Below, piece after piece: positions 1 through 17,566 of a DNA stretch of 37,664 nucleotides; the first letter of the stretch is position 1; every line of letters begins with the position of its first letter. A program made the translations under genes and the position numbers. Origin of the DNA: Escherichia phage T7; sequence record AY264776.1; one strand, 5' to 3'. The notes under the pieces are model-generated. The model saw nothing but the letters and a program-made list of their open reading frames with translations. It made no database searches and had not been told where the DNA came from.

Positions 1-137
1 TCCCCCATAGGGGGTACCTAAAGCCCAGCCAATCATCTAAAGTCAACCTTCGGTTGACCTTGAGGGTTCCCTAAGGGTTGGGGATGACCCTTGGGTTTGT
101 CTTTGGGTGTTACTTTGAGTGTTTCTCTGTGTCCCTA
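1..137. repeat. Left terminal direct repeat (partial; window starts ~23 bp inside the T7 terminal repeat)
   Basis: Bases 1-137 are repeated almost exactly at 37534-37664; sequence matches the T7 terminal redundancy (tcccccatagggggtacctaaagcccagcc...). Confidence 0.9.
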
Positions 138-149
138 TCTGTTACAGTC

Positions 150-350
150 TCCTAAAGTATCCTCCTAAAGTCACCTCTTAACGTCCATCCTAAAGCCAAC
201 ACCTAAAGCCAACACCTAAAGACCCATCAAGTCAACGCCTATCTTAAAGTTTAAACATAAAGACCAGACCTAAAGACCAGACCTAAAGACACTACATAAA
301 GACCAGACCTAAAGACGCCTTGTTGTTAACCATAAAGTGATAACCTTTAA
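150..350. repeat. Left-end short repeat array (cctaaag / ataaag heptamer family, SRL-like)
   Basis: Iterated cctaaag, acctaaagccaac x2, ataaagaccagacctaaagac x3 seen directly; matches the repeat region next to the T7 left terminal repeat. Confidence 0.8.
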
Positions 351-363
351 TCATTGTCTTTAT

Positions 364-386
364 TAATACAACTCACTATAAGGAGA
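364..386 (+). promoter_or_regulatory. T7 RNAP promoter phiOL (variant taatacaactcactataaggaga)
   Basis: 23-bp T7 promoter-like element, position equivalent to phiOL. Confidence 0.8.
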
Positions 387-437
387 GACAACTTAAAGAG
401 ACTTAAAAGATTAATTTAAAATTTATCAAAAAAAGTA

Positions 438-474
438 TTGACTTAAAGTCTAACCTATAGGATACTTACAGCCA
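438..474 (+). promoter_or_regulatory. E. coli sigma70 early promoter A1
   Basis: ttgact -35 (438-443), 17-bp spacer, gatact -10 (461-466); T7 A1 context. Confidence 0.85.
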
Positions 475-564
475 TCGAGAGGGACACGGCGAATAACCAT
501 CCCAATCGACACCGGGGTCAACCGAATAAATAGACAGCCTGATAAGTCGCACGAAAAACAGGTA

Positions 565-602
565 TTGACAACATGAAGTAACATGCAGTAAGATACAAAT
601 CG
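565..602 (+). promoter_or_regulatory. E. coli sigma70 early promoter A2
   Basis: ttgaca -35 (565-570), taagat -10 (589-594). Confidence 0.85.
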
Positions 603-689
603 CTAGGTAACATTAGCAGCGTCAACCGGGCGCACAGTGCCTTCTAGGTGACTTAAGCGCACCACGGCACATAAGGTGAAACAAAACAG

Positions 690-726
690 TTGACAACATG
701 AAGTAAACACGGTACGATGTACCACA
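690..726 (+). promoter_or_regulatory. E. coli sigma70 early promoter A3
   Basis: ttgaca -35 (690-695), 17-bp spacer, tacgat -10 (713-718). Confidence 0.85.
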
Positions 727-825
727 TGAAACGACAGTGAGTTACCACACTGAAAGGTGATGCGGTCTAACGAAACCTGACCTAAGACGCTCTTTAACAA
801 TCTGGTAAATAGCTCTTGAGTGCAT

Positions 826-886
826 GACTAGCGGATAACTCAAGGATATCGCAAGGTGCCCTTTATGATATTCACTAATAACTGCA
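826..886 (+). promoter_or_regulatory. RNase III processing site R0.3 (stem-loop upstream of gene 0.3)
   Basis: Conserved ctcaagg...gccctttatgat hairpin motif shared by other intergenic sites in this window. Confidence 0.5.
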
Positions 887-900
887 CGAGGTAACACAAG

Positions 901-1254
901 ATGGCTATGTCTAACATGACTTACAACAACGTTTTCAACCACGCTTACGAAATGCTGAAAGAAAATATCCGTTATGATGACATCCGTGACACTGATGACC
1001 TGCACGATGCTATTCACATGACTGCCGATAATGCAGTTCCGCACTACTACGCTGACATCTTTAGCGTAATGGCAAGTGAGGGCATTGACCTTGAGTTCGA
1101 AGACTCTGGTCTGATGCCTAACACTAAGGACGTAATCCGCATCCTGCAAGCGCGTATCTATGAGCAATTAACGATTGACCTCTGGGAAGACGCAGAAGAC
1201 TTGCTCAATGAATACTTGGAGGAAGTCGAGGAGTACGAGGAGGAGGAAGAGTAA
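901..1254 (+). CDS. 0.3: Ocr, DNA-mimic inhibitor of type I restriction-modification (T7 gene 0.3)
   Basis: 117-aa ORF, highly acidic, recognised as T7 Ocr ([12 protein letters not shown]...EYEEEEE). Confidence 0.95.
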
Positions 1255-1409
1255 TGTCTACTACCAACGTGCAATACGGTCTGACCGCTCAAACTGTATT
1301 TTTCTATAGCGACATGGTGCGCTGTGGCTTTAACTGGTCACTCGCAATGGCACAGCTCAAAGAACTGTACGAAAACAACAAGGCAATAGCTTTAGAATCT
1401 GCTGAGTGA
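1254..1409 (+). CDS. 0.4: T7 gene 0.4 small protein
   Basis: 51-codon ORF starting at the ATG overlapping the 0.3 stop ([51 protein letters not shown]); below the ORF-track length cutoff. Confidence 0.8.
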   Translation: MSTTNVQYGLTAQTVFFYSDMVRCGFNWSLAMAQLKELYENNKAIALESAE

Positions 1410-1411
1410 TA

Positions 1412-1465
1412 GACTCAAGGTCGCTCCTAGCGAGTGGCCTTTATGATTATCACTTTACTTATGAG
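1412..1465 (+). promoter_or_regulatory. RNase III site R0.5
   Basis: actcaaggtcgctcctagcgagtggcctttatgatt hairpin. Confidence 0.6.
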
Positions 1466-1471
1466 GAAGTA

Positions 1472-1556
1472 ATGTATATGGACTGATAGTCTTATCTTAC
1501 AGGTCATTTGCGGGTGGCCTGAATAGGTACGATTTACTAACTGAAAGAGGCACTAA
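1472..1556 (+). other. Deletion scar: first codons of gene 0.5 (atgtatatg) joined to the sequence immediately upstream of gene 1; genes 0.5, 0.6, 0.7 absent
   Basis: Gene 0.4 is followed after ~150 bp by the RNA polymerase gene; no kinase (0.7) ORF anywhere in the window. Confidence 0.8.
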
Positions 1557-4208
1557 ATGAACACGATTAACATTGCTAAGAACGACTTCTCTGACATCGA
1601 ACTGGCTGCTATCCCGTTCAACACTCTGGCTGACCATTACGGTGAGCGTTTAGCTCGCGAACAGTTGGCTCTTGAACATGAGTCTTACGAGATGGGTGAA
1701 GCACGCTTCCGCAAGATGTTTGAGCGTCAACTTAAAGCTGGTGAGGTTGCGGATAACGCTGCCGCCAAGCCTCTCATCACTACCCTACTCCCTAAGATGA
1801 TTGCACGCATCAACGACTGGTTTGAGGAAGTGAAAGCTAAGCGCGGCAAGCGTCCGACAGCCTTCCAGTTTCTGCAAGAAATCAAGCCGGAAGCCGTAGC
1901 GTACATCACCATTAAAACCACTCTGGCTTGCCTAACCAGTGCTGACAATATAACCGTTCAGGCTGTAGCAAGCGCAATCGGTCGGGCCATTGAGGACGAG
2001 GCTCGCTTCGGTCGTATCCGTGACCTTGAAGCTAAGCACTTCAAGAAAAACGTTGAGGAACAACTCAACAAGCGCGTAGGGCACGTCTACAAGAAAGCAT
2101 TTATGCAAGTTGTCGAGGCTGACATGCTCTCTAAGGGTCTACTCGGTGGCGAGGCGTGGTCTTCGTGGCATAAGGAAGACTCTATTCATGTAGGAGTACG
2201 CTGCATCGAGATGCTCATTGAGTCAACCGGAATGGTTAGCTTACACCGCCAAAATGCTGGCGTAGTAGGTCAAGACTCTGAGACTATCGAACTCGCACCT
2301 GAATACGCTGAGGCTATCGCAACCCGTGCAGGTGCGCTGGCTGGCATTTCTCCAATGTTCCAACCTTGCGTAATTCCTTCTAAGCCGTGGACTGGCATTA
2401 CTGGTGGTGGCTATTGGGCTAACGGTCGTCGTCCTCTGGCGCTGGTGCGTACTCACAGTAAGAAAGCACTGATGCGCTACGAAAACGTTTACATGCCTGA
2501 GGTGTACAAAGCGATTAACATTGCGCAAAACACCGCATGGAAAATCAACAAGAAAGTCCTAGCGGTCGCCAACGTAATTACCAAGTGGAAGCATTGTCCG
2601 GTCGAGGACATCCCTGCGATTGAGCGTGAAGAACTCCCGATGAAACCGAAAGACATCGACATGAATCCTGAGGCTCTCACCGCGTGGAAACGTGCTGCCG
2701 CTGCTGTGTACCGCAAGGACAAGGCTCGCAAATCTCGCCGTATCAACCTTGAGTTCATGCTTGAGCAAGCCAATAAGTTTGCTAACCATAAGGCCATCTG
2801 GTTCCCTTACAACATGGACTGGCGCGGTCGTGTTTACGCTGTGTCAATGTTCAACCCGCAAGGTAACGATATGACCAAAGGACTGCTTACGCTGGCGAAA
2901 GGTAAACCAATCGGTAAGGAAGGTTACTACTGGCTGAAAATCCACGGTGCAAACTGTGCGGGTGTCGATAAGGTTCCGTTCCCTGAGCGCATCAAGTTCA
3001 TTGAGGAAAACCACGAGAACATCATGGCTTGTGCTAAGTCTCCACTGGAGAACACTTGGTGGGCTGAGCAAAATTCTCCGTTCTGCTTCCTTGCGTTCTG
3101 CTTTGAGTACGCTGGAGTACAGCACCACGGCCTGAGCTATAACTGCTCCCTTCCGCTGGCGTTTGACGGGTCTTGCTCTGGCATCCAGCACTTCTCCGCG
3201 ATGCTCCGAGATGAGGTAGGTGGTCGCGCGGTTAACTTGCTTCCTAGTGAAACCGTTCAGGACATCTACGGGATTGTTGCTAAAAAAGTCAACGAGATTC
3301 TACAAGCAGACGCAATCAATGGGACTGATAACGAAGTAGTTACCGTGACCGATGAGAACACTGGTGAAATCTCTGAGAAAATCAAACTGGGCACTAAGGC
3401 ACTGGCTGGTCAATGGCTGGCTTACGGTGTTACTCGCAGTGTGACTAAGCGTTCAGTCATGACGCTGGCTTACGGGTCCAAAGAGTTCGGCTTCCGTCAA
3501 CAAGTGCTAGAAGATACCATTCAGCCAGCTATTGATTCCGGCAAGGGTCTGATGTTCACTCAGCCGAATCAGGCTGCTGGATACATGGCTAAGCTGATTT
3601 GGGAATCTGTGAGCGTGACGGTGGTAGCTGCGGTTGAAGCAATGAACTGGCTTAAGTCTGCTGCTAAGCTGCTGGCTGCTGAGGTCAAAGATAAGAAGAC
3701 TGGAGAGATTCTTCGCAAGCGTTGCGCTGTGCATTGGGTAACTCCTGATGGTTTCCCTGTGTGGCAGGAATACAAGAAGCCTATTCAGACGCGCTTGAAC
3801 CTGATGTTCCTCGGTCAGTTCCGCTTACAGCCTACCATTAATACCAACAAAGATAGCGAGATTGATGCACACAAACAGGAGTCTGGTATCGCTCCTAACT
3901 TTGTACACAGTCAAGACGGTAGCCATCTTCGTAAGACTGTAGTGTGGGCACACGAGAAGTACGGAATCGAATCTTTTGCACTGATTCACGACTCCTTCGG
4001 TACCATTCCGGCTGACGCTGCGAACCTGTGCAAAGCAGTGCGCGAAACTATGGTTGACACATATGAGTCTTGTGATGTACTGGCTGATTTCTACGACCAG
4101 TTCGCTGACCAGTTGCACGAGTCTCAATTGGACAAAATGCCAGCACTTCCGGCTAAAGGTAACTTGAACCTCCGTGACATCTTAGAGTCGGACTTCGCGT
4201 TCGCGTAA
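1557..4208 (+). CDS. 1: T7 DNA-directed RNA polymerase
   Basis: 883 aa; catalytic HDSFG motif and C-terminal FAFA present. Confidence 0.98.
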   Translation: MNTINIAKNDFSDIELAAIPFNTLADHYGERLAREQLALEHESYEMGEARFRKMFERQLKAGEVADNAAAKPLITTLLPKMIARINDWFEEVKAKRGKRPTAFQFLQEIKPEAVAYITIKTTLACLTSADNITVQAVASAIGRAIEDEARFGRIRDLEAKHFKKNVEEQLNKRVGHVYKKAFMQVVEADMLSKGLLGGEAWSSWHKEDSIHVGVRCIEMLIESTGMVSLHRQNAGVVGQDSETIELAPEYAEAIATRAGALAGISPMFQPCVIPSKPWTGITGGGYWANGRRPLALVRTHSKKALMRYENVYMPEVYKAINIAQNTAWKINKKVLAVANVITKWKHCPVEDIPAIEREELPMKPKDIDMNPEALTAWKRAAAAVYRKDKARKSRRINLEFMLEQANKFANHKAIWFPYNMDWRGRVYAVSMFNPQGNDMTKGLLTLAKGKPIGKEGYYWLKIHGANCAGVDKVPFPERIKFIEENHENIMACAKSPLENTWWAEQNSPFCFLAFCFEYAGVQHHGLSYNCSLPLAFDGSCSGIQHFSAMLRDEVGGRAVNLLPSETVQDIYGIVAKKVNEILQADAINGTDNEVVTVTDENTGEISEKIKLGTKALAGQWLAYGVTRSVTKRSVMTLAYGSKEFGFRQQVLEDTIQPAIDSGKGLMFTQPNQAAGYMAKLIWESVSVTVVAAVEAMNWLKSAAKLLAAEVKDKKTGEILRKRCAVHWVTPDGFPVWQEYKKPIQTRLNLMFLGQFRLQPTINTNKDSEIDAHKQESGIAPNFVHSQDGSHLRKTVVWAHEKYGIESFALIHDSFGTIPADAANLCKAVRETMVDTYESCDVLADFYDQFADQLHESQLDKMPALPAKGNLNLRDILESDFAFA

Positions 4209-4215
4209 CGCCAAA

Positions 4216-4239
4216 TCAATACGACTCACTATAGAGGAA
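4216..4239 (+). promoter_or_regulatory. T7 promoter phi1.1A
   Basis: caatacgactcactatagagg. Confidence 0.85.
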
Positions 4240-4291
4240 CAAACTCAAGGTCATTCGCAAAAATGGCCTTTATGATTGATCTTCTTCCGGT

Positions 4292-4313
4292 TAATACGAC
4301 TCACTATAGGAGA
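4292..4313 (+). promoter_or_regulatory. T7 promoter phi1.1B
   Basis: taatacgactcactataggaga. Confidence 0.9.
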
Positions 4314-4392
4314 ACCTTAAGGTTTAACTTTAAGACCCTTAAGTGTTAATTAGAGATTTAAATTAAAGAATTACTAAGAGAGGACTTTAAGT

Positions 4393-4521
4393 ATGCGTAA
4401 CTTCGAAAAGATGATCAAACGTTCTAACCGTAATGCTCGTGACTTCGAGGTAACCAAAGGTCGCAAGTTGAATAAGACTAAGCGTGACCGCTCTCACAAG
4501 CGTAGCTGGGAGAGTCAGTAA
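4393..4521 (+). CDS. 1.1: T7 gene 1.1 protein
   Basis: 42-aa basic ORF MRNFEKMIKRSNRNARDFEVTKGRKLNKTKRDRSHKRSWESQ. Confidence 0.85.
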   Translation: MRNFEKMIKRSNRNARDFEVTKGRKLNKTKRDRSHKRSWESQ

Positions 4522-4522
4522 G

Positions 4523-4780
4523 ATGGGACGTTTATATAGTGGTAATCTGGCAGCATTCAAGGCAGCAACAAACAAGCTGTTCCAGTTAGACTTAGCGGTC
4601 ATTTATGATGACTGGTATGATGTCTATACAAGAAAAGATTGCATACGGTTACGTATTGAGGACAGGAGTGGAAACCTGATTGATACTAACACCTTCTACC
4701 ACCACGACGAGGACGTTCTGTTCAATATGTGTACTGATTGGTTGAACCATATGTATGACCAGTTGAAGGACTGGAAGTAA
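4523..4780 (+). CDS. 1.2: Gene 1.2 protein (inhibitor of host dGTPase)
   Basis: 85 aa from ATG at 4523 (MGRLYSGNLAAFKAATNKLFQ...); ORF track shows an upstream in-frame extension. Confidence 0.9.
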   Translation: MGRLYSGNLAAFKAATNKLFQLDLAVIYDDWYDVYTRKDCIRLRIEDRSGNLIDTNTFYHHDEDVLFNMCTDWLNHMYDQLKDWK

Positions 4781-4800
4781 TACGACTCAGTATAGGGACA
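4778..4800 (+). promoter_or_regulatory. T7 promoter phi1.3
   Basis: taatacgactcagtatagggaca. Confidence 0.9.
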
Positions 4801-4860
4801 ATGCTTAAGGTCGCTCTCTAGGAGTGGCCTTAGTCATTTAACCAATAGGAAATAAACATT

Positions 4861-5940
4861 ATGATGAACATTAAGACTAACCCGTTTAAAGCCGTGTCTT
4901 TCGTAGAGTCTGCCATTAAGAAGGCTCTGGATAACGCTGGGTATCTTATCGCTGAAATCAAGTACAATGATGTACGCGGGAACATCTGCGTAGACAATAC
5001 TGCTAACAGTTACTGGCTCTCTCGTGTATCTAAAACGATTCCGGCACTGGAGCACTTAAACGGGTTTGATGTTCGTTGGAAGCGTTTACTGAACGATGAT
5101 CGTTGCTTCTACAAAGATGGCTTTATGCTTGATGGGGAACTCATGGTCAAGGGCGTAAACTTTAATACAGGGTCCGGTCTACTGCGTACCAAATGGACTG
5201 ACACGAAGAACCAAGAGTTCCATGAAGAGTTATTCGTTGAACCAATCCGTAAGAAAGATAAAGTTCCCTTTAAGCTGCACACTGAACACCTTCACATAAA
5301 ACTGTACGCTATCCTCCCGCTGCACATCGTGGAGTCTGGAAAAGACTGTGATGTCATGACGTTGCTCATGCAGGAACACGTTAAGAACATGCTGCCTCTG
5401 CTACAGGAATATTTTCCTGAAATCGAATGGCAAGCGGCTGAATCTTACGAGGTCTACGATATGGTAGAACTACAGCAACTGTACGAGCAGAAGCGAGCAG
5501 AAGGCCATGAGGGTCTCATTGTGAAAGACCCGATGTGTATCTATAAGCGCGGTAAAAAATCTGGCTGGTGGAAAATGAAACCTGAGAACGAAGCTGACGG
5601 TATCATTCAGGGTCTGATATGGGGTATAAAAGGTCTGGCTAATGAAGGTAAAGTGATTGGTTTTGAGGTGCTTCTTGAGAATGGTCGTTTAGTTAACGCC
5701 ACGAATATTTCTCGTGCCTTAATGGATGAGTTCACTGAGACAGTAAAAGAGGCCACTCTAAGTCAATGGGGATTCTTTAGCCCATACGGTATTGGCGACA
5801 ACGATGCTTGTACTATTAACCCTTACGATGGCTGGGCGTGTCAAATTAGCTACATGGAGGAAACACCTGATGGCTCTTTGCGGCACCCATCGTTCGTAAT
5901 GTTCCGTGGCACTGAGGACAACCCTCAAGAGAAAATGTAA
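4861..5940 (+). CDS. 1.3: ATP-dependent DNA ligase; motif I reads K34-Y-N-D-V-R instead of KxDGxR, so possibly inactive
   Basis: 359 aa; ligase motifs FMLDGELMV, EGLIVKD, WWKMK present; motif I at 4960-4977 is aag tac aat gat gta cgc. Confidence 0.9.
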   Translation: MMNIKTNPFKAVSFVESAIKKALDNAGYLIAEIKYNDVRGNICVDNTANSYWLSRVSKTIPALEHLNGFDVRWKRLLNDDRCFYKDGFMLDGELMVKGVNFNTGSGLLRTKWTDTKNQEFHEELFVEPIRKKDKVPFKLHTEHLHIKLYAILPLHIVESGKDCDVMTLLMQEHVKNMLPLLQEYFPEIEWQAAESYEVYDMVELQQLYEQKRAEGHEGLIVKDPMCIYKRGKKSGWWKMKPENEADGIIQGLIWGIKGLANEGKVIGFEVLLENGRLVNATNISRALMDEFTETVKEATLSQWGFFSPYGIGDNDACTINPYDGWACQISYMEETPDGSLRHPSFVMFRGTEDNPQEKM

Positions 5941-5943
5941 TCA

Positions 5944-5975
5944 CACTGGCTCACCTTCGGGTGGGCTTTTCTGCG
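5944..5975 (+). terminator. Host-type rho-independent terminator TE
   Basis: ggctcaccttcgggtgggc hairpin followed by ttttctgcgttt. Confidence 0.8.
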
Positions 5976-5993
5976 TTTATAAGGAGACACTTT

Positions 5994-6149
5994 ATGTTTA
6001 AGAAGGTTGGTAAATTCCTTGCGGCTTTGGCAGCTATCCTGACGCTTGCGTATATTCTTGCAGTATACCTTCAAGTAGCACTAGTAGTAATTGGCGCTTG
6101 TTATTTAGCGACAGTGTGTGCTTGCGTGTGGAGTATAGTTAACTGGTAA
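5994..6149 (+). CDS. 1.4: T7 gene 1.4 small hydrophobic protein
   Basis: 51 aa MFKKVGKFLAALAAILTLAYILAVYLQVALVVIGACYLATVCACVWSIVNW. Confidence 0.8.
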   Translation: MFKKVGKFLAALAAILTLAYILAVYLQVALVVIGACYLATVCACVWSIVNW

Positions 6150-6170
6150 TACGACTCACTAAAAGAGGTA
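6148..6170 (+). promoter_or_regulatory. T7 promoter phi1.5 (initiating base reads A, not G)
   Basis: taatacgactcactaaaagaggt; compare phi1.6 and phi4.3, which read cactaaaggag. Confidence 0.8.
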
Positions 6171-6176
6171 CACACC

Positions 6177-6269
6177 ATGATGTACTTAATGCCATTACTC
6201 ATCGTCATTGTAGGATGCCTTGCGCTCTACTGTAGCGATGATGATGATATGCCAAATGGTCACGCTTAA
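6177..6269 (+). CDS. 1.5: T7 gene 1.5 small protein
   Basis: 30-codon ORF MMYLMPLLIVIVGCLALYCSDDDDMPNGHA; contains a GAT x4 repeat. Confidence 0.7.
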   Translation: MMYLMPLLIVIVGCLALYCSDDDDMPNGHA

Positions 6270-6289
6270 TACGACTCACTAAAGGAGAC
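6267..6289 (+). promoter_or_regulatory. T7 promoter phi1.6
   Basis: taatacgactcactaaaggagac. Confidence 0.9.
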
Positions 6290-6294
6290 ACTAT

Positions 6295-6555
6295 ATGTTT
6301 CGACTTCATTACAACAAAAGCGTTAAGAATTTCACGATTCGCCGTGCTGACCGTTCAATCGTATGTGCGAGCGAGCGCCGAGCTAAGATACCTCTTATTG
6401 GTAACACAGTTCCTTTGGCACCGAACGTCCACATCATTATCACCCGTGGTGACTTTGAAAAAGCAATAGACAAGAAACGTCCGGTTCTTAGTGTGGCAAT
6501 GACCCGCTTCCCGTTCGTCCGTCTGTTACTCAAACGAATCAAGGAGGTGTTCTGA
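6295..6555 (+). CDS. 1.6: T7 gene 1.6 protein
   Basis: 86-aa ORF at the T7 gene 1.6 position. Confidence 0.85.
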
Positions 6556-7134
6556 TGGGACTGTTAGATGGTGAAGTCTGGGAAAAAAACCCGCCAGTAC
6601 AAGCAACTGGATGTATAGCTTGCTTAGAGAAAGATGACCGTTATCCACACATCTGTAACAAAGGAGCTAACGATATGACTGAACGTGAACAAGAGATGAT
6701 CATTAAGTTGATAGACAATAATGAAGGTCGCCCAAATGATTTGAATGGCTGCGGTATTCTCTGCTCCAATGTCCCTTGCCACTTCTGCCCCACAAATAAC
6801 GATCAAAAGATAACTTTAGGTGAAATCCGAGCGATGGACCCACGTAAACCACATCTGAATAAACCTGAGGTAACTCCTACAGATGACCAGCCTTCCGCTG
6901 AGACAATCGAAGGTGTCACTAAGCCTTCCCACTACATGCTGTTTGACGACATTGAGGCTATCGAAGTGATTGCTCGTTCAATGACCGTTGAGCAGTTCAA
7001 GGGATACTGCTTCGGTAACATCTTAAAGTACAGACTACGTGCTGGTAAGAAGTCAGAGTTAGCGTACTTAGAGAAAGACCTAGCGAAAGCAGACTTCTAT
7101 AAAGAACTCTTTGAGAAACATAAGGATAAATGTT

Positions 7135-7142
<8 letters not shown>
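6555..7142 (+). CDS. 1.7: Gene 1.7 protein (nucleotide kinase)
   Basis: 195-aa ORF, Cys-rich N-terminal region, T7 gp1.7-like. Confidence 0.9.
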
Positions 7143-7475
<333 letters not shown>

Positions 7476-7478
<3 letters not shown>

Positions 7479-7498
7479 TACGACTCACTATTAGGGAA
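7476..7498 (+). promoter_or_regulatory. T7 promoter phi2.5
   Basis: taatacgactcactattagggaa. Confidence 0.9.
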
Positions 7499-7543
7499 GA
7501 CTCCCTCTGAGAAACCAAACGAAACCTAAAGGAGATTAACATT

Positions 7544-8242
7544 ATGGCTAAGAAGATTTTCACCTCTGCGCTGGGTACCGCTGAACCTTACGCTTACATC
7601 GCCAAGCCGGACTACGGTAACGAAGAGCGTGGCTTTGGAAACCCTCGTGGTGTCTATAAAGTTGACCTGACTATTCCCAACAAAGACCCGCGCTGCCAGC
7701 GTATGGTCGATGAAATCGTGAAGTGTCACGAAGAGGCTTATGTTGCTGCCGTTGAGGAATACGAAGCTAATCCACCTGCTGTAGCTCGTGGTAAGAAACC
7801 GCTGAAACCGTATGAGGGTGACATGCCGTTCTTCGATAACGGTGACGGTACGACTACTTTTAAGTTCAAATGCTACGCGTCTTTCCAAGACAAGAAGACC
7901 AAAGAGACCAAGCGCATCAATCTGGTTGTGGTTGACTCAAAAGGTAAGAAGATGGAAGACGTTCCGATTATCGGTGGTGGCTCTAAGCTGAAAGTTAAAT
8001 ATTCTCTGGTTCCATACAAGTGGAACACTGCTGTAGGTGCGAGCGTTAAGCTGCAACTGGAATCCGTGATGCTGGTCGAACTGGCTACCTTTGGTGGCGG
8101 TGAAGACGATTGGGCTGACGAAGTTGAAGAGAACGGCTATGTTGCCTCTGGTTCTGCCAAAGCGAGCAAACCACGCGACGAAGAAAGCTGGGACGAAGAC
8201 GACGAAGAGTCCGAGGAAGCAGACGAAGACGGAGACTTCTAA
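7544..8242 (+). CDS. 2.5: Single-stranded DNA-binding protein gp2.5
   Basis: 232 aa with acidic C-terminal tail ending DEDGDF. Confidence 0.97.
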   Translation: MAKKIFTSALGTAEPYAYIAKPDYGNEERGFGNPRGVYKVDLTIPNKDPRCQRMVDEIVKCHEEAYVAAVEEYEANPPAVARGKKPLKPYEGDMPFFDNGDGTTTFKFKCYASFQDKKTKETKRINLVVVDSKGKKMEDVPIIGGGSKLKVKYSLVPYKWNTAVGASVKLQLESVMLVELATFGGGEDDWADEVEENGYVASGSAKASKPRDEESWDEDDEESEEADEDGDF

Positions 8243-8662
8243 GTGGAACTGCGGGAGAAAATCCTTGAGCGAATCAAGGTGACTTCCTCTGGGTGTTGGG
8301 AGTGGCAGAGCGCTACGAACAATAAAGGGTACGGGCAGGTGTGGTGCAACAATACCGGAAAAGTTGTCTACTGTCATCGCGTAATGTCTAATGCTCCGAA
8401 AGGTTCTACCGTCCTGCACTCCTGTGATAATCCATTATGTTGTAACCCTGAACATCTATCCATAGGAACTCCAAAAGAGAACTCCATTGACATGGTAAAT
8501 AAGGGTCGCTCACACAAGGGGTATAAACTTTCAGACGAAGACGTAATGGCAATCATGGAGTCCAGCGAGTCCAATGTATCCTTAGCTCGCACCTATGGTG
8601 TCTCCCAACAGATTATTTGTGATATACGCAAAAGGAGACGACATGGTAGGTTACGGCGTTAA
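8243..8662 (+). CDS. 2.8: Gene 2.8 protein (HNH endonuclease-like)
   Basis: 139 aa; HNH-like CHRV...H.CDNPLCCNPEHL motif. Confidence 0.85.
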   Translation: MELREKILERIKVTSSGCWEWQSATNNKGYGQVWCNNTGKVVYCHRVMSNAPKGSTVLHSCDNPLCCNPEHLSIGTPKENSIDMVNKGRSHKGYKLSDEDVMAIMESSESNVSLARTYGVSQQIICDIRKRRRHGRLRR

Positions 8663-9092
8663 AGGAATCCGAAAGGTTGGAGCGTTTCGCTCTGGCCTAG
8701 AGGACAAGGTTTCAAAGCAGTTGGAATCAAAAGGTATTAAATTCGAGTATGAAGAGTGGAAAGTGCCTTATGTAATTCCGGCGAGCAATCACACTTACAC
8801 TCCAGACTTCTTACTTCCAAACGGTATATTCGTTGAGACAAAGGGTCTGTGGGAAAGCGATGATAGAAAGAAACACTTATTAATTAGGGAGCAGCACCCC
8901 GAACTAGACATCCGTATTGTCTTCTCAAGCTCACGTACTAAGTTATACAAAGGTTCTCCAACGTCTTATGGAGAGTTCTGCGAAAAACATGGTATTAAGT
9001 TCGCTGATAAACTGATACCTGCTGAGTGGATAAAGGAACCCAAGAAGGAGGTCTCCTTTGATAGATTAAAAAGGAAAGGAGGAAAGAAATAA
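8643..9092 (+). CDS. 3: Endonuclease I (Holliday-junction resolvase)
   Basis: 149 aa from ATG 8643 (MVGYGVKGIRKVGAFRSGLEDK...); ORF track start 8595 is an upstream extension. Confidence 0.93.
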   Translation: MVGYGVKGIRKVGAFRSGLEDKVSKQLESKGIKFEYEEWKVPYVIPASNHTYTPDFLLPNGIFVETKGLWESDDRKKHLLIREQHPELDIRIVFSSSRTKLYKGSPTSYGEFCEKHGIKFADKLIPAEWIKEPKKEVSFDRLKRKGGKK

Positions 9093-9547
9093 TGGCTCGT
9101 GTACAGTTTAAACAACGTGAATCTACTGACGCAATCTTTGTTCACTGCTCGGCTACCAAGCCAAGTCAGAATGTTGGTGTCCGTGAGATTCGCCAGTGGC
9201 ACAAAGAGCAGGGTTGGCTCGATGTGGGATACCACTTTATCATCAAGCGAGACGGTACTGTGGAGGCAGGACGAGATGAGATGGTTGTAGGCTCTCACGC
9301 TAAGGGTTACAATCACAACTCTATCGGCGTCTGCCTTGTTGGTGGTATCGACGATAAAGGTAAGTTCGACGCTAACTTTACGCCAGCCCAAATGCAATCC
9401 CTTCGCTCACTGCTTGTCACATTGCTGGCTAAGTACGAAGGCGCTGTGCTTCGCGCCCATCATGAGGTGGCGCCGAAGGCTTGCCCTTCGTTCGACCTTA
9501 AGCGTTGGTGGGAGAAGAACGAACTGGTCACTTCTGATCGTGGATAA
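9092..9547 (+). CDS. 3.5: T7 lysozyme (N-acetylmuramoyl-L-alanine amidase; RNAP inhibitor)
   Basis: 151 aa MARVQFKQRESTDAIFVHCSATKPSQNVGVREIRQWHKEQGWLDVGYHFII... Confidence 0.97.
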   Translation: MARVQFKQRESTDAIFVHCSATKPSQNVGVREIRQWHKEQGWLDVGYHFIIKRDGTVEAGRDEMVVGSHAKGYNHNSIGVCLVGGIDDKGKFDANFTPAQMQSLRSLLVTLLAKYEGAVLRAHHEVAPKACPSFDLKRWWEKNELVTSDRG

Positions 9548-9548
9548 T

Positions 9549-9571
9549 TAATTGAACTCACTAAAGGGAGA
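9549..9571 (+). promoter_or_regulatory. T7 promoter phi3.8
   Basis: taattgaactcactaaagggaga followed by a leader hairpin resembling the phi10 leader. Confidence 0.85.
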
Positions 9572-9610
9572 CCACAGCGGTTTCCCTTTGTTCGCATTGG
9601 AGGTCAAATA

Positions 9611-9950
9611 ATGCGCAAGTCTTATAAACAATTCTATAAGGTTCCGAGGAGGCATATTCAAGTGTGGGAGGCAGCCAATGGGTCTATACCAAAAGGTTAT
9701 TATATAGACCACATTGACGGCAATCCACTCAACGACACCTTAGACAATCTCCGTCTGGCTCTCCCAAAAGAAAACTCATGGAACATGAAGACTCCAAAGA
9801 GCAATACCTCAGGACTAAAGGGACTGAGTTGGAGCAAGGAAAGGGAGATGTGGAGAGGCACTGTAACAGCTGAGGATAAACAGCATAACTTTCGTAGTAG
9901 AGATCTATTGGAAGTCGTTGCGTGGATTTATAGAACTAGGAGGGAATTGC

Positions 9951-9976
<26 letters not shown>
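9611..9976 (+). CDS. 3.8: Gene 3.8 protein (HNH endonuclease-like)
   Basis: 121-aa ORF, HxD...N HNH-like core. Confidence 0.85.
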
Positions 9977-11709
<1,733 letters not shown>

Positions 11710-11712
<3 letters not shown>

Positions 11713-11732
11713 TACGACTCACTAAAGGAGAC
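11710..11732 (+). promoter_or_regulatory. T7 promoter phi4.3
   Basis: taatacgactcactaaaggagac. Confidence 0.9.
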
Positions 11733-11737
11733 ACACC

Positions 11738-11950
11738 ATGTTCAAACTGATTAAGAAGTTAGGCCAACTGCTGGTTCGTATGTACAACGTGGAAGCCAAG
11801 CGACTGAACGATGAGGCTCGTAAAGAGGCCACACAGTCACGCGCTCTGGCGATTCGCTCCAACGAACTGGCTGACAGTGCATCCACTAAAGTTACCGAGG
11901 CTGCCCGTGTGGCAAACCAAGCTCAACAGCTTTCCAAATTCTTTGAGTAA
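11738..11950 (+). CDS. 4.3: T7 gene 4.3 protein
   Basis: 70-aa ORF MFKLIKKLGQLLVRMYNVEAKRLNDEARKE... Confidence 0.85.
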   Translation: MFKLIKKLGQLLVRMYNVEAKRLNDEARKEATQSRALAIRSNELADSASTKVTEAARVANQAQQLSKFFE

Positions 11951-11969
11951 TCAAACAGAAGAAACCATT

Positions 11970-12239
11970 ATGTCTAACGTAGCTGAAACTATCCGTCTAT
12001 CCGATACAGCTGACCAGTGGAACCGTCGAGTCCACATCAACGTTCGCAACGGTAAGGCGACTATGGTTTACCGCTGGAAGGACTCTAAGTCTTCTAAGAA
12101 TCACACTCAGCGTATGACGTTGACAGATGAGCAAGCACTGCGTCTGGTCAATGCGCTTACCAAAGCTGCCGTGACAGCAATTCATGAAGCTGGTCGCGTC
12201 AATGAAGCTATGGCTATCCTCGACAAGATTGATAACTAA
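11970..12239 (+). CDS. 4.5: T7 gene 4.5 protein
   Basis: 89 aa from ATG 11970 (MSNVAETIRLSDTADQWNRRVHINVRNGK...); the ORF-track entry carries an upstream extension. Confidence 0.85.
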   Translation: MSNVAETIRLSDTADQWNRRVHINVRNGKATMVYRWKDSKSSKNHTQRMTLTDEQALRLVNALTKAAVTAIHEAGRVNEAMAILDKIDN

Positions 12240-12243
12240 GAGT

Positions 12244-12283
12244 GGTATTCTCAAGGTCGCCAAAGTGGTGGCCTTCATGAATA
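12244..12283 (+). promoter_or_regulatory. RNase III site R4.7
   Basis: ggtattctcaaggtcgccaaagtggtggccttcatga hairpin. Confidence 0.55.
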
Positions 12284-12306
12284 CTATTCGACTCACTATA
12301 GGAGAT
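12284..12306 (+). promoter_or_regulatory. T7 promoter phi4.7
   Basis: ctattcgactcactataggagat. Confidence 0.85.
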
Positions 12307-12312
12307 ATTACC

Positions 12313-12720
12313 ATGCGTGACCCTAAAGTTATCCAAGCAGAAATCGCTAAACTGGAAGTTGAACTGGAGGACGTTAAGTACCATGAAGCTAAGACTCGCT
12401 CCGCTGTTCACATCTTGAAAAACTTAGGCTGGACTTGGACAAGACAGACTGGCTGAAAGAAACCAGAAGTTACCAAGTTGAGTCATAAGGTGTTCGATAA
12501 GGACACTATGACCCACATCAAGGCTGGTGATTGGGTTAAGGTTGACATGGGAATTGTTGGTGGATACGACTACGTCCGCTCAGTTAGTGACAAATATGCA
12601 CAAATGTCATACATCACAGATGTTACTCCACGCGGTGCAATCGTTACCGATAAGACCAACATGATTCACACAGATTTCTTGACAGTTGTTTCATATGAAG
12701 AGATTGTTAAGTCACGATAA
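12313..12720 (+). pseudogene. 4.7: Gene 4.7 interrupted by an in-frame opal (TGA) codon at 12454-12456
   Basis: Two same-frame ORFs (12313..12456 and 12478..12720) together span 408 nt, the length of T7 gene 4.7 (135 aa); junction reads ...TRQTG*KKPEVTKLSHK... Confidence 0.8.
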
Positions 12721-12738
12721 TCAATAGGAGAAATCAAT

Positions 12739-14853
12739 ATGATCGTTTCTGACATCGAAGCTAACGCCCTCTTAGAGAGCGTCACTAAGTGCCACTGCGG
12801 GGTTATCTACGACTACTCCACCGCTGAGTACGTAAGCTACCGTCCGAGTGACTTCGGTGCGTATCTGGATGCGCTGGAAGCCGAGGTTGCACGAGGCGGT
12901 CTTATTGTGTTCCACAACGGTCACAAGTATGACGTTCCTGCATTGACCAAACTGGCAAAGTTGCAATTGAACCGAGAGTTCCACCTTCCTCGTGAGAACT
13001 GTATTGACACCCTTGTGTTGTCACGTTTGATTCATTCCAACCTCAAGGACACCGATATGAGTCTTCTGCGTTCCGGCAAATTGCCCGGAAAACGCTTTGG
13101 GTCTCACACTTTGGAGGCGTGGGGTTATCGCTTAGGCGAGATGAAGGGTGAATACAAAGACGACTTTAAGCGTATGCTTGAAGAGCAGGGTGAAGAATAC
13201 GTTGACGGAATGGAGTGGTGGAACTTCAACGAAGAGATGATGGACTATAACGTTCAGGACGTTGTGGTAACTAAAGCTCTTCTTGAGAAGCTACTCTCTG
13301 ACAAACATTACTTCCCTCCTGAGATTGACTTTACGGACATAGGATACACTACGTTCTGGTCAGAATCCCTTGAGGCCGTTGACATTGAACATCGTGCTGC
13401 ATGGATGCTCGCTAAACAAGAGCGCAACGGGTTCCCGTTTGACACAAAAGCAATCGAAGAGTTGTACGTAGAGTTAGCTTCTCGCCGCTCTGAGTTGCTC
13501 CGTAAATTGACCGAAACGTTCGGCTCGTGGTATCAGCCTAAAGGTGGCACTGAGATGTTCTGCCATCCGCGAACAGATAAGCCACTACCTAAATACCCTC
13601 GCATTAAGACACCTAAAGTTGGTGGTATCTTTAAGAAGCCTAAGAACAAGGCACAGCGAGAAGGCCGTGAGCCTTGCGAACTTGATACCCGCGAGTACGT
13701 TGCTGGTGCTCCTTATACCCCAGTTGAACATGTTGTGTTTAACCCTTCGTCTCGTGACCACATTCAGAAGAAACTCCAAGAGGCTGGGTGGGTCCCGACC
13801 AAGTACACCGATAAGGGTGCTCCTGTGGTGGACGATGAGGTACTCGAAGGAGTACGTGTAGATGACCCTGAGAAGCAAGCCGCTATCGACCTCATTAAAG
13901 AGTACTTGATGATTCAGAAGCGAATCGGACAGTCTGCTGAGGGAGACAAAGCATGGCTTCGTTATGTTGCTGAGGATGGTAAGATTCATGGTTCTGTTAA
14001 CCCTAATGGAGCAGTTACGGGTCGTGCGACCCATGCGTTCCCAAACCTTGCGCAAATTCCGAGTGTACGTTCTCCTTATGGAGAGCAGTGTCGCGCTGCT
14101 TTTGGCGCTGAGCACCATTTGGATGGGATAACTGGTAAGCCTTGGGTTCAGGCTGGCATCGACGCATCCGGTCTTGAGCTACGCTGCTTGGCTCACTTCA
14201 TGGCTCGCTTTGATAACGGCGAGTACGCTCACGAGATTCTTAACGGCGACATCCACACTAAGAACCAGATAGCTGCTGAACTACCTACCCGAGATAACGC
14301 TAAGACATTCATCTATGGGTTCCTCTATGGTGCTGGTGATGAGAAGATTGGACAGATTGTTGGTGCTGGTAAAGAGCGCGGTAAGGAACTCAAGAAGAAA
14401 TTCCTTAAGAACACCCCCGCGATTGCAGCACTCCGCGAGTCTATCCAACAGACACTTGTCGAGTCCTTTCAATGGGTAGCTGGTGAGCAACAAGTCAAGT
14501 GGAAACGCCGCTGGATTAAAGGTCTGGATGGTCGTAAGATACACGTTCGTAGTCCTCACGCTGCCTTGAATACCCTACTGCAATCTGCTGGTGCTCTCAT
14601 CTGCAAACTGTGGATTATCAAGACCGAAGAGATGCTCGTAGAGAAAGGCTTGAAGCATGGCTGGGATGGGGACTTTGCGTACATGGCATGGGTACATGAT
14701 GAAATCCAAGTAGGCTGCCGTACCGAAGAGATTGCTCAGGTGGTCATTGAGACCGCACAAGAAGCGATGCGCTGGGTTGGAGATCACTGGAACTTCCGGT
14801 GTCTTCTGGATACCGAAGGTAAGATGGGTCTTAATTGGGCGATTTGCCACTGA
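12739..14853 (+). CDS. 5: T7 DNA polymerase
   Basis: 704 aa; exonuclease D5/E7 motif, polymerase motifs DASGLELR and HDE intact. Confidence 0.98.
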
Positions 14854-14868
14854 TACAGGAGGCTACTC

Positions 14869-15249
14869 ATGAACGAAAGACACTTAACAGGTGCTGCTTC
14901 TGAAATGCTAGTAGCCTACAAATTTACCAAAGCTGGGTACACTGTCTATTACTCTATGCTGACTCAGAGTAAAGAGGACTTGGTTGTATGTAAGGATGGT
15001 AAATTTAGTAAGGTTCAGGTTAAAACAGCTACAACGGTTCAAACCAACACAGGAGATGCCAAGCAGGTTAGGCTAGGTGAATGCGGTAGGTCCGAATATA
15101 AGGATGGAGACTTTGACATTCTTGCAGTTGTGGTTGACGAAGATGTGCTTATTTTCACATGGGACGAAGTAAAAGGTAAGACATCCATGTGTGTCGGCAA
15201 GAGAAACAAAGGCATAAAACTAGAGGAGAAACTTAATGGCACTTCTTGA
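14869..15249 (+). CDS. 5.3: Gene 5.3 fused in frame to the last ~8-9 codons of gene 5.9 (deletion of 5.5, 5.7 and most of 5.9)
   Basis: 126-aa ORF starting MNERHLTGAASEMLVAYKF (gp5.3) and ending ...EEKLNGTS (gp5.9 C-terminus), overlapping the gene 6 start as 5.9 does in T7. Confidence 0.75.
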   Translation: MNERHLTGAASEMLVAYKFTKAGYTVYYSMLTQSKEDLVVCKDGKFSKVQVKTATTVQTNTGDAKQVRLGECGRSEYKDGDFDILAVVVDEDVLIFTWDEVKGKTSMCVGKRNKGIKLEEKLNGTS

Positions 15250-16138
15250 CCTTAAACAATTCTATGAGTTACGTGAAGGCTGCGACGACAAGAGTATCCT
15301 TGTGATGGACGGCGACTGGCTGGTCTTCCAAGCTATGAGTGCTGCTGAGTTTGATGCCTCTTGGGAGGAAGAGATTTGGCACCGATGCTGTGACCACGCT
15401 AAGGCCCGTCAGATTCTTGAGGATTCCATTAAGTCCTACGAGACCCGTAAGAAGGCTTGGGCAGGTGCTCCAATTGTCCTTGCGTTCACCGATAGTGTTA
15501 ACTGGCGTAAAGAACTGGTTGACCCGAACTATAAGACTAACCGTAAGGCCGTGAAGAAACCTGTAGGGTACTTTGAGTTCCTTGATGCTCTCTTTGAGCG
15601 CGAAGAGTTCTATTGCATCCGTGAGCCTATGCTTGAGGGTGATGACGTTATGGGAGTTATTGCTTCCAATCCGTCTGCCTTCGGTGCTCGTAAGGCTGTA
15701 ATCATCTCTTGCGATAAGGACTTTAAGACCATTCCTAACTGTGACTTCCTGTGGTGTACCACTGGTAACATCCTGATTCAGACCGAAGAGTCCGCTGACT
15801 GGTGGCACCTTTTCCAGACCATCAAGGGTGACATCACTGATGGTTACTCAGGGATTGCTGGATGGGGTGATACCGCCGAGGACTTCTTGAATAACCCGTT
15901 CATAATCGAGCCTAAAACGTCTGTGCTTAAGTCCGGTAAGAACAAAGGCCAAGAGGTTACTAAATGGATTAAACGCGATCCTGAGCCTCATGAGACGCTT
16001 TGGGACTGCATTAAGTCCATTGGCGCGAAGGCTGGTATGACCGAAGAGGATATTATCAAGCAGGGCCAAATGGCTCGAATTCTACGGTTCAACGAGTACA
16101 ACTTTATTGACAAGGAGATTTACCTGTGGAGACCGTAG
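15236..16138 (+). CDS. 6: 5'-3' exonuclease gp6
   Basis: 300 aa MALLDLKQFYELREG... Confidence 0.97.
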   Translation: MALLDLKQFYELREGCDDKSILVMDGDWLVFQAMSAAEFDASWEEEIWHRCCDHAKARQILEDSIKSYETRKKAWAGAPIVLAFTDSVNWRKELVDPNYKTNRKAVKKPVGYFEFLDALFEREEFYCIREPMLEGDDVMGVIASNPSAFGARKAVIISCDKDFKTIPNCDFLWCTTGNILIQTEESADWWHLFQTIKGDITDGYSGIAGWGDTAEDFLNNPFIIEPKTSVLKSGKNKGQEVTKWIKRDPEPHETLWDCIKSIGAKAGMTEEDIIKQGQMARILRFNEYNFIDKEIYLWRP

Positions 16139-16239
16139 CGTATATTGGTCTGGGTCTTTGTGTTCTCGGAGTGTGCCTCATTTCGTGGGGCCTTTGGGAC
16201 TTAGTCAGAATAATCAAGTCGTTACACGACACTAAGTGA
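16126..16239 (+). CDS. 6.3: T7 gene 6.3 small protein (GTG start)
   Basis: 37-codon ORF overlapping the end of gene 6, hydrophobic. Confidence 0.6.
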   Translation: METVAYIGLGLCVLGVCLISWGLWDLVRIIKSLHDTK

Positions 16240-16259
16240 TAAACTCAAGGTCCCTAAAT

Positions 16260-16282
16260 TAATACGACTCACTATAGGGAGA
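16260..16282 (+). promoter_or_regulatory. T7 promoter phi6.5 (consensus class III)
   Basis: taatacgactcactatagggaga, inside an RNase III-type hairpin (R6.5). Confidence 0.95.
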
Positions 16283-16336
16283 TAGGGGCCTTTACGATTA
16301 TTACTTTAAGATTTAACTCTAAGAGGAATCTTTATT

Positions 16337-16591
16337 ATGTTAACACCTATTAACCAATTACTTAAGAACCCTAACGATATTCCAGATGTACCTCGTGCAA
16401 CCGCTGAGTATCTACAGGTTCGATTCAACTATGCGTACCTCGAAGCGTCTGGTCATATAGGACTTATGCGTGCTAATGATTGTAGTGAGGCCCACATCTT
16501 GGGTTTCATTCAGGGCCTACAATATGCCTCTAACGTCATTGACGAGATTGAGTTACGCAAGGAACAACTAAGAAATGATGAGGAGAATTGA
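16337..16591 (+). CDS. 6.5: T7 gene 6.5 protein
   Basis: 84-aa ORF. Confidence 0.85.
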
Positions 16592-16595
16592 CACT

Positions 16596-16862
16596 ATGTG
16601 TTTCTCACCGAAAATTAAAACTCCGAAGATGGATACCAATCAGATTCGAGCCGTTGAGCCAACGCCTCTGACCCAAGAAGTGTCAAGCGTGGAGTTCGGT
16701 GGGTCTTCTGATGAGACGGATACCGAGGGCACCGAAGTGTCTGGACGCAAAGGCCTCAAGGTCGAACGTGATGATTCCGTAACGAAGTCTAAAGCCAGCG
16801 GCAATGGCTCCGCTCGTATGAAATCTTCCATCCGTAAGTCCGCATTTGGAGGTAAGAAGTGA
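16596..16862 (+). CDS. 6.7: Gene 6.7 virion protein
   Basis: 88 aa from ATG 16596 (MCFSPKIKTPKMDTNQIRAV...). Confidence 0.85.
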   Translation: MCFSPKIKTPKMDTNQIRAVEPTPLTQEVSSVEFGGSSDETDTEGTEVSGRKGLKVERDDSVTKSKASGNGSARMKSSIRKSAFGGKK

Positions 16863-17263
16863 TGTCTGAGTTCACATGTGTGGAGGCTAAGAGTCGCTTC
16901 CGTGCAATCCGGTGGACTGTGGAACACCTTGGGTTGCCTAAAGGATTCGAAGAACACTTTGTGGGCTACAGCCTCTACGTAGACGAAGTGATGGACATGT
17001 TTGGTTGCCGTGAAGAGTACATTCTGGACTCTACCGGAAAACATGTAGCGTACTTCGCGTGGTGCGTAAGCTGTGACATTCACCACAAAGGAGACATTCT
17101 GGATGTAACATCCGTTGTCATTAATCCTGAGGCAGACTCTAAGGGCTTACAGCGATTCCTAGCGAAACGCTTTAAGTACCTTGCGGAACTCCACGATTGC
17201 GATTGGGTGTCTCGTTGTAAACATGAAAGCGAGACAATGCGTGTATACTTTAAGGAGGTATAA
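16862..17263 (+). CDS. 7: Gene 7 protein (host range / virion)
   Basis: 133 aa from ATG 16862; the ORF track begins at an upstream GTG. Confidence 0.85.
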   Translation: MSEFTCVEAKSRFRAIRWTVEHLGLPKGFEEHFVGYSLYVDEVMDMFGCREEYILDSTGKHVAYFAWCVSCDIHHKGDILDVTSVVINPEADSKGLQRFLAKRFKYLAELHDCDWVSRCKHESETMRVYFKEV

Positions 17264-17266
17264 GTT

Positions 17267-17566
17267 ATGGATATGAAAGTTAAGAAGGCCGTGAAGAAAG
17301 TCGCCAAGTTCGTTAAGAAAGTCGTTAAGGAAGGGGCTCGTCCGGTTACACAGGTTGCTGGCGGTCTAGCTGGTCTGGCTGGTGGTACTGGTGAAGCACA
17401 GATGGTGAAAGTACCACAAGCTGCCGCACAGATTGTTGACGTACCTGAGAAAGAGGTTTCCACTGAGGACGAAGCACAGACAGAAAGCGGACGCAAGAAA
17501 GCTCGTGCTGGCGGTAAGAAATCCTTGAGTGTAGCCCGTAGCTCCGGTAGCGGTATCAACATTTAA
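17267..17566 (+). CDS. 7.3: Gene 7.3 tail-associated protein
   Basis: 99 aa, Lys/Ala-rich MDMKVKKAVKKVAKFVKKVVKEG... Confidence 0.9.
   Translation: MDMKVKKAVKKVAKFVKKVVKEGARPVTQVAGGLAGLAGGTGEAQMVKVPQAAAQIVDVPEKEVSTEDEAQTESGRKKARAGGKKSLSVARSSGSGINI

Follow-up and report, generated by a model that had tools for sequence, protein, structure and literature searches.

The interval at 1472-1556 of the phage DNA analysed here (the window: the whole 37,664-nucleotide stretch of record AY264776.1, Escherichia phage T7, one strand, 5' to 3') is best explained, with a probability of about 0.92, as the scar of a spontaneous deletion that became fixed in a laboratory-evolved T7 lineage, K155, descended from the mutagenised isolate K. 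The lost stretch comprises gene 0.5 from codon 4 on, genes 0.6A/B and gene 0.7 as far as its penultimate codon, and judged by the coding sequence that is left, the resulting phage should possess neither the Ser/Thr kinase nor the shut-off function of 0.7. A sequence-only reading of the same DNA had proposed a laboratory deletion or adaptive loss at this place, and that proposal holds in the sense that a deletion arose spontaneously and became fixed as the line evolved in the laboratory; the early-region loss is real, and is an adaptive or tolerated laboratory loss. The class of deletion is already known and the genome is already published, AY264776 being called the K155 strain of T7 in one published paper. 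The finding therefore has little import beyond the correct annotation of the record as a laboratory-evolved T7 (K155) without 0.5, 0.6 and the 0.7 kinase/shut-off protein, and the K155 genome is not to be counted as natural T7-group diversity.

Extent of the deletion

Comparison of the window with wild-type T7 (V01146) by blastn resolved it into three colinear blocks of 98.5-99.1% identity that together span its whole length (Table 1). The gap between the first two blocks corresponds to T7 nt 1505-3094, so that exactly 1590 bp (V01146 numbering; movable by at most 3 nt) are absent, in agreement with the loss of about 1.59 kb that had been estimated from the coordinate offset alone. Numbered on the 39,938-bp T7+ version, in which 0.6A and 0.7 are separated by one base more, the deletion measures 1591 bp. 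The string 'atgtatatg' at 1472-1480, which begins 62 nt past the stop of gene 0.4 and had been recognised by direct reading of the sequence as the only codons of 0.5 to survive, is indeed all that is left of that gene. Genes 0.3 and 0.4 are kept, the product of the latter being 98% identical to T7 gp0.4 and its coordinates the same as in AY264775, and the distance from the gene 0.4 stop to the gene 1 start is 147 nt in the window versus 1737 nt in T7.

Searches of the whole window for the missing material were negative at both the protein and the DNA level. With gp0.5, gp0.6A and gp0.7 as tblastn queries no match was found, the best gp0.7 alignment having E = 0.07 over 38 aa, and the deleted DNA as a blastn query gave nothing beyond matches of at most 20 nt. 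The earlier statement that 0.5, 0.6 and the 0.7 kinase are absent is borne out by these searches, and a kinase ORF of 0.7 relocated to another part of the genome, the finding that would have told against it, did not appear by tblastn.

Table 1. Coordinates of the aligned blocks, the deletion junctions and the neighbouring features (window positions unless stated otherwise)
Feature	Position	Strand	Basis
Block 1	1-1480 = T7 25-1504		blastn vs V01146
Block 2	1471-15235 = T7 3085-16848		blastn vs V01146
Block 3	15218-37664 = T7 17486-39932		blastn vs V01146
Gene 0.4, last intact early gene before the deletion	1254-1409	+	51-aa ORF
Hairpin with internal loop in the 0.4/0.5 spacer	1405-1454	+	predicted fold, window and wild-type T7
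Surviving left copy of the 12-nt imperfect direct repeat, GTAATGTATATG	1469-1480	+	window/T7/K comparison
Mini-ORF ATG TAT ATG GAC TGA (MYMD-stop)	1472-1486	+	0.7 frame vs V01146 CDS 2021-3100
Crossover: ATG common to both repeat copies	1478-1480	+	three-way window/T7/K comparison
Retained right flank	1481-1556 = T7 3095-3170	+	alignment with T7, isolate K and Yersinia phage R
R1 RNase III hairpin	about 1488-1534	+	homologous 47 nt annotated in Yersinia phage R
Gene 1 (T7 RNA polymerase), intact	1557-4208	+	883-aa ORF, no internal stops
Junction of the second deletion	15218-15222, within 15218-15249		crossover in AACTA
Three imperfect-repeat pairs of isolate K			RNase III hairpin tops; pair used; 0.6A and gene 1 ribosome-binding sites

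Structure of the junction

The junction lies at 1480/1481, ambiguous within the 3 nt of a shared ATG, and consists of GTAATGTATATG joined to GACTGATAG, in a wider reading ...GAGGAAGTAATGTATATG joined to GACTGATAGTC... on the two sides. In T7 and isolate K the left flank runs on instead as ...TATATG followed by CTTACT, and the right flank is preceded by ...GCAATGTTAATG in T7 and by ...GTAATGTTAATG in K. This last sequence (K 2239-2250, equivalent to T7 3083-3094) is the partner of the repeat copy that survives in the window. The two copies agree at 10 of 12 positions in K versus 9 of 12 in wild-type T7, the longer match in K being due to a C>T at T7 3084 that also creates a 7-nt exact block. 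Since the window has the base of the left copy at both mismatches, the crossover must have occurred in the terminal shared ATG, and the exact homology at the crossover is 3 nt only. The pairwise alignment with T7 that had been proposed earlier for defining the breakpoints and any microhomology thus places the loss at T7 1505-3094, with a shared ATG inside an imperfect repeat.

By our own binomial estimate, which assumes a 25% match per base, a random pair of sites reaches 10 of 12 with a probability of ~4e-5. The interval from 0.4 to gene 1 in K contains three distinct imperfect-repeat pairs that match at 10 or more of 12 positions and lie at least 700 bp apart, one of which was used. The pair used is the sole one of the three that removes every ORF with both hairpins left whole.

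On the right, the first letters retained are the final sense codon of gene 0.7, which reads GGC in T7 but GAC in K and the window, and the TGA of that gene. The 70-nt intergenic region between 0.7 and gene 1 comes next, and the flank accordingly comprises the end of 0.7, the -10 region of promoter C together with its start, the R1 hairpin and the ribosome-binding site of gene 1. The sequence-only reading had the 0.5 codons joined directly to the DNA just upstream of gene 1, which is nearly the case, except that the join is made to the last codon of 0.7 and is in frame. The result is a mini-ORF behind the ribosome-binding site of 0.5 (GAGGAAGT), in which codons 1-3 of gene 0.5 run directly into the final sense codon of 0.7 and its stop. 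Two short ORFs on the opposite strand in this area, at 1427-1507 and 1497-1637 across the junction, are mechanical and have no support.

Two explanations that would deprive the junction of biological meaning were weighed against these features. The first is a sequencing or assembly artefact, in which 0.5-0.7 or the remnant of them found in K would still be present in the phage and two similar short sequences would have been collapsed. We regard this as extremely unlikely: blocks 1 and 2 do overlap by 10 nt in the blastn alignment, and an assembler could in principle join reads at such an overlap, but reads of the Sanger era are much too long to be collapsed at an imperfect repeat of 12 nt. Moreover, explicit Ns occur elsewhere in the record, and all six N positions in the window are far from the junction, which answers the earlier concern that it might be an assembly gap. 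The order of the protein accessions AAP34018, 34019 and 34020 would imply that the depositors annotated 0.3, 0.4 and gene 1 in succession, with the same gap, and a second repeat-mediated, in-frame deletion is present in the same genome at 15218-15222. Deletions in this region are, furthermore, the norm in T7 lines.

The second explanation, that the deletion was engineered by cloning or recombineering, is very improbable as well. T7 laboratories have built many early-region deletions (e.g. strains in PMC3737178), and the in-frame join would suit a design; however, the junction contains no linker or 6-bp restriction site, and because it bears no such scar we regard the event as spontaneous. The sole nearby site, AhdI, lies downstream of the junction and is also found in isolate K. 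The breakpoints fall within a natural imperfect repeat, the genomic background is one of random mutagenesis, and the close relative K still has the intervening DNA.

Probable descent from isolate K

The window appears to be K155 itself: its gene 1 protein, the one protein compared, exactly matches AAP34020.1, a number lying between the protein accessions of AY264775 (AAP33966-34017) and those of AY264777 (from AAP34067 on), and differs from that of T7 at 9 amino acids, and no difference from AY264776 K155 (Bull, Badgett, Rokyta & Molineux 2003, J Mol Evol 57:241) was detectable. Relative to T7 the window carries 413 substitutions, 367 of which (89%) are G:C>A:T, and this excess is the signature of a chemical mutagen. 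G:C>A:T changes dominate after nitrosoguanidine mutagenesis of T7 (PMC6042481), and a spectrum of this kind has been reported for T7 mutagenised with nitrosoguanidine or hydroxylamine (PMC6042481).

The closest database record is AY264775, 'T7 isolate K', which is ~99.9% identical to the window and has the same coordinates up to nt 1480. Two deletions that isolate K does not have, of 770 bp at the present junction and of 655 bp at 5.5-5.9, distinguish the window from it, along with about 22 point differences. In 18 of the 22 unambiguous differences the window is derived and K is wild type, in 2 the window is wild type, and 2 are third states; among the ~18 that are private to the window, A>C and T>G transversions predominate. 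The mutations of K, including those that flank the junction, are common to the window. This is the pattern expected if, as the comparison of the two genomes suggests, the window was derived from isolate K or from the population of K by later passage without mutagen. K and a further isolate, P, are reportedly terminal lineages of the Hillis-Bull T7 'known phylogeny' experiment, and Bull et al. are said to have sequenced K, P and their fitness-recovered derivatives in 2003.

The two third-state sites, 21212 and 26502, were already mutated in K, which suggests that the changes there are compensatory rather than reversions. Positions 280 and 338 are the sole sites with the wild-type base in the window and a mutant base in K; both fall in non-coding DNA at the left end, in the repeat array and close to phiOL, and may be explained by reversion, by mutations that only the sequenced K isolate has, or by differences in sequencing.

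Two probable nested deletions

Isolate K itself is without 820 bp of T7 (1759-2578), which were deleted between CCGCAAG repeats. This deletion makes an in-frame ORF of 214 aa (K 1612-2256, unannotated) in which residues 1-41 of gp0.6A are joined to residues 187-359 of gp0.7. Judged by the residues retained, the fusion is without the N-terminal half of the kinase domain, which is thereby destroyed, and it has the whole C-terminal host shut-off domain, potentially still expressed. In the window, a further 770 bp are missing compared with K (K 1481-2250; 820 + 770 = 1590), and with them gene 0.5 and all of the 0.6A'-'0.7 fusion of K are taken out. The early genes were thus very probably lost in two successive nested deletions, of 820 bp and then 770 bp, an order read from the K-to-window ancestry because the deletion of K is nested inside that of the window.

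A rival history, in which 1.59 kb were lost at once from a genome whose 0.5-0.7 region was still intact and the window is a sister of K rather than its descendant, is improbable by comparison. The deletion of K is wholly nested within that of the window, which retains no trace of it, and the wild-type bases at 280 and 338 speak for such a relationship. Against this, essentially all of the roughly 380 mutations of K are common to the window, among them those of the right flank beside the junction, and the private changes number 18 in the window as opposed to at most 2 in K. With at most 2 private changes, K must stand at or next to the ancestor, and its own deletion would therefore have to be fitted within 0-2 steps. 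The name 'K155' likewise implies derivation from K. We accordingly retain the two-step history, in which the kinase was lost first and the shut-off domain second; together with the architectures of wild relatives (see below), it is mildly instructive on the boundaries at which loss is tolerated.

Retained genes and expression signals

Essential gene 1 and the signals for its expression appear, from the sequence retained, to have been left intact by the deletion. The ribosome-binding site of gene 1 is retained in the window. The hairpin of the 0.4/0.5 spacer is predicted to have the same structure in the window and in wild-type T7, with folding energies of -23.9 vs -24.4 kcal/mol. We take this hairpin to correspond to the R0.5 RNase III processing site of T7, as part of established T7 knowledge (Dunn & Studier 1983). 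Yersinia phage R annotates promoter C and R1 at positions homologous to those of the right flank, and the core hairpin of R1 is predicted to be unchanged in the window. An Rfam scan of 1200-1800 at E <= 1 returned no matches; no curated Rfam family covers the T7 RNase III sites. The RNA of the whole region 1405-1575 folds into a structure that is not unusually stable (z = -1.5), and for this reason we claim no new structure made by the junction.

The minor E. coli promoters B and C have each lost one hexamer. At promoter B (start T7 1514) the presumed -10 sequence is changed from TATGCT to TATGGA in our own reading of the sequence, and at promoter C (start T7 3113) the -35 sequence TTGACG (T7 3078-3083) is deleted. 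A scan with the sigma-70 consensus found nothing in the window and nothing either in T7 1400-3200, where B and C are annotated; as the scan misses both promoters even in wild-type T7, their fate was judged from the annotated positions and the hexamers.

Comparison with other early-region deletions

Early-region deletions are typical of T7 adaptations (PMC6042481, PMC8923235, PMC5850294), and the recurrent loss of this region in laboratory adaptation has been explained by a deleterious or dispensable gp0.7 (PMC2680503, PMC6042481, PMC5850294). Deletions recovered on serial passage of T7 (Studier et al. 1979; Cunningham et al. 1997) fall in the same 0.3-to-gene 1 interval as that of the window; T7-61 and the Amberless pre-adapted line carry a ~1.49-kb deletion of 0.3-0.7, and the UV line a 2.1-kb deletion of 0.4-0.7. 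The window differs from these in having breakpoints of its own (T7 1505-3094), in keeping both 0.3 and 0.4, and in having very probably reached its present state in two nested steps. Its repeat is also of a different quality, in that the early deletions of T7 have been attributed to recombination between direct repeats only 7-10 bp long (PMC8923235), whereas here the repeat is imperfect and exact over only 3 nt at the crossover. In dozens of T7 lines on deposit the deletion ends at other points on the right (T7 ~1904, 1911, 1981, 2041 and 2724), and the junction of the window occurs in no other record of the phage collection searched. It is one more exactly mapped case among many repeat-mediated deletions of the early region.

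Isolate P (AY264777) offers a parallel. It carries a different deletion of ~0.81 kb inside 0.7 (T7 ~2180-2987), at about 2147-2157, and shares only 21 substitutions with K, out of 370 in K and 275 in P. K and P represent parallel loss of the kinase in separate mutagenised lineages.

Kinase-less members of the T7 group also exist in nature, namely 13a (EU734174), Yersinia phage R (JX000007), YpsP-G and HZP2. Like the window, they have a short early region with an in-frame remnant of the gp0.7 C-terminus just upstream of R1 and gene 1. In phage 13a, 0.4 is followed by a 44-aa ORF (1570-1704) that ends in the gp0.7 C-terminus, and then by promoter C and gene 1; in Yersinia phage R an annotated 0.3-0.7 fusion (186-608) is followed by promoter C, R1 and gene 1. 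In 13a and phage R, promoter C is present together with its -35 sequence, which the window has lost. The natural cases are independent events, with other breakpoints and no mutagen signature. A right-hand boundary near the end of 0.7 thus appears to be repeatedly tolerated in nature.

This likeness in architecture to 13a and Yersinia phage R is what could be said for a natural absence, that is, for the window being a wild T7-group phage that never had the kinase or lost it long ago. The likelihood of such an origin is negligible, given that the identity to T7 is 98.5-99.1% throughout with a spectrum of 89% G:C>A:T, that a laboratory isolate is ~99.9% identical to the window, and that the junction is unlike those of 13a and phage R.

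Origin and spread of the deletion

Under the preferred reading, a spontaneous loss in a laboratory line descended from K, the second deletion of 770 bp (K 1481-2250) would have arisen during later passage of large populations without mutagen, through recombination or replication slippage between short repeats, the usual route for T7 deletions. Its spread may have had one or more of three causes. First, the region may be dispensable on laboratory E. coli poor in defence systems. Recent evidence gives the disarming of bacterial defence systems as the main role of the kinase (PMC13645617), with which the deletions fit, and the phage can do without the kinase on laboratory strains that have few such systems (PMC13645617). 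Second, residual shut-off activity of gp0.7 may have been harmful in rich medium. Third, gene 1 is now 1.59 kb nearer the end of the genome that enters the cell. The T7 genome is mostly pulled in by transcription, which host RNAP carries out at about half of 140 bp/s (PMC3737178); at an entry rate of ~70 bp/s, the removal of 1.59 kb would bring gene 1 into the cell ~23 s earlier than in wild type, and the 770 bp removed relative to K would account for ~11 s of gain over K. Alternatively, the deletion could have hitchhiked with any of ~20 other changes. That K155 is viable, and that the deletion was neutral or beneficial in passage, is what we infer from the deposition of the genome of a propagated strain and from the literature on comparable deletions (PMC2680503, PMC6042481).

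A more specific scenario, which we put forward tentatively and consider rather doubtful, is that the second deletion was selected specifically to purge the 0.6A'-'0.7 shut-off fusion of K, and was helped by the mutagen-induced C>T at T7 3084, by which the repeat match rose from 9/12 to 10/12. If true, the microhomology at which an adaptive deletion later took place would be a product of mutagenesis, and the shut-off domain, not the kinase, would be the costly part of gp0.7 in rich medium. More generally, deletions of this kind show that the T7 kinase is dispensable, or even costly, on defence-poor laboratory hosts.

Other changes in the genome

The second large deletion of the window comprises 655 bp (T7 16837-17491), with which genes 5.5, 5.7 and 5.9 are gone. 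It joins the similar ribosome-binding-site regions of 5.5 and 6, with the AACTA at the crossover lying within a match of 13 of 14 positions. Gene 5.3 has lost its stop and gp5.3 gains the last 8 residues of gp5.9 in frame (...GIKL/EEKLNGTS-stop), such that the extended gene overlaps the start of gene 6 (15236). Genes 5.7 and 5.9 of isolate K already contained nonsense codons.

Smaller changes were also noted. Of the T7 terminal repeats, the window lacks 24 nt at the beginning and 5 nt at the end, and single-base Ns are found at 10477, 10633, 20375, 25678, 35600 and 35660. Gene 4.7 (12313-12720), which the annotation of isolate K gives as 'similar to gene 4.7', has an internal stop at codon 48 and is thus a pseudogene produced by mutagenesis that the genome still carries. 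Finally, two changes that keep the reading frame are found both in the window and in K: a 3-bp insertion (GAT) in gene 1.5 at 6237-6239 and a 3-bp deletion in gene 1.7 (T7 8197-8199) after 6585.
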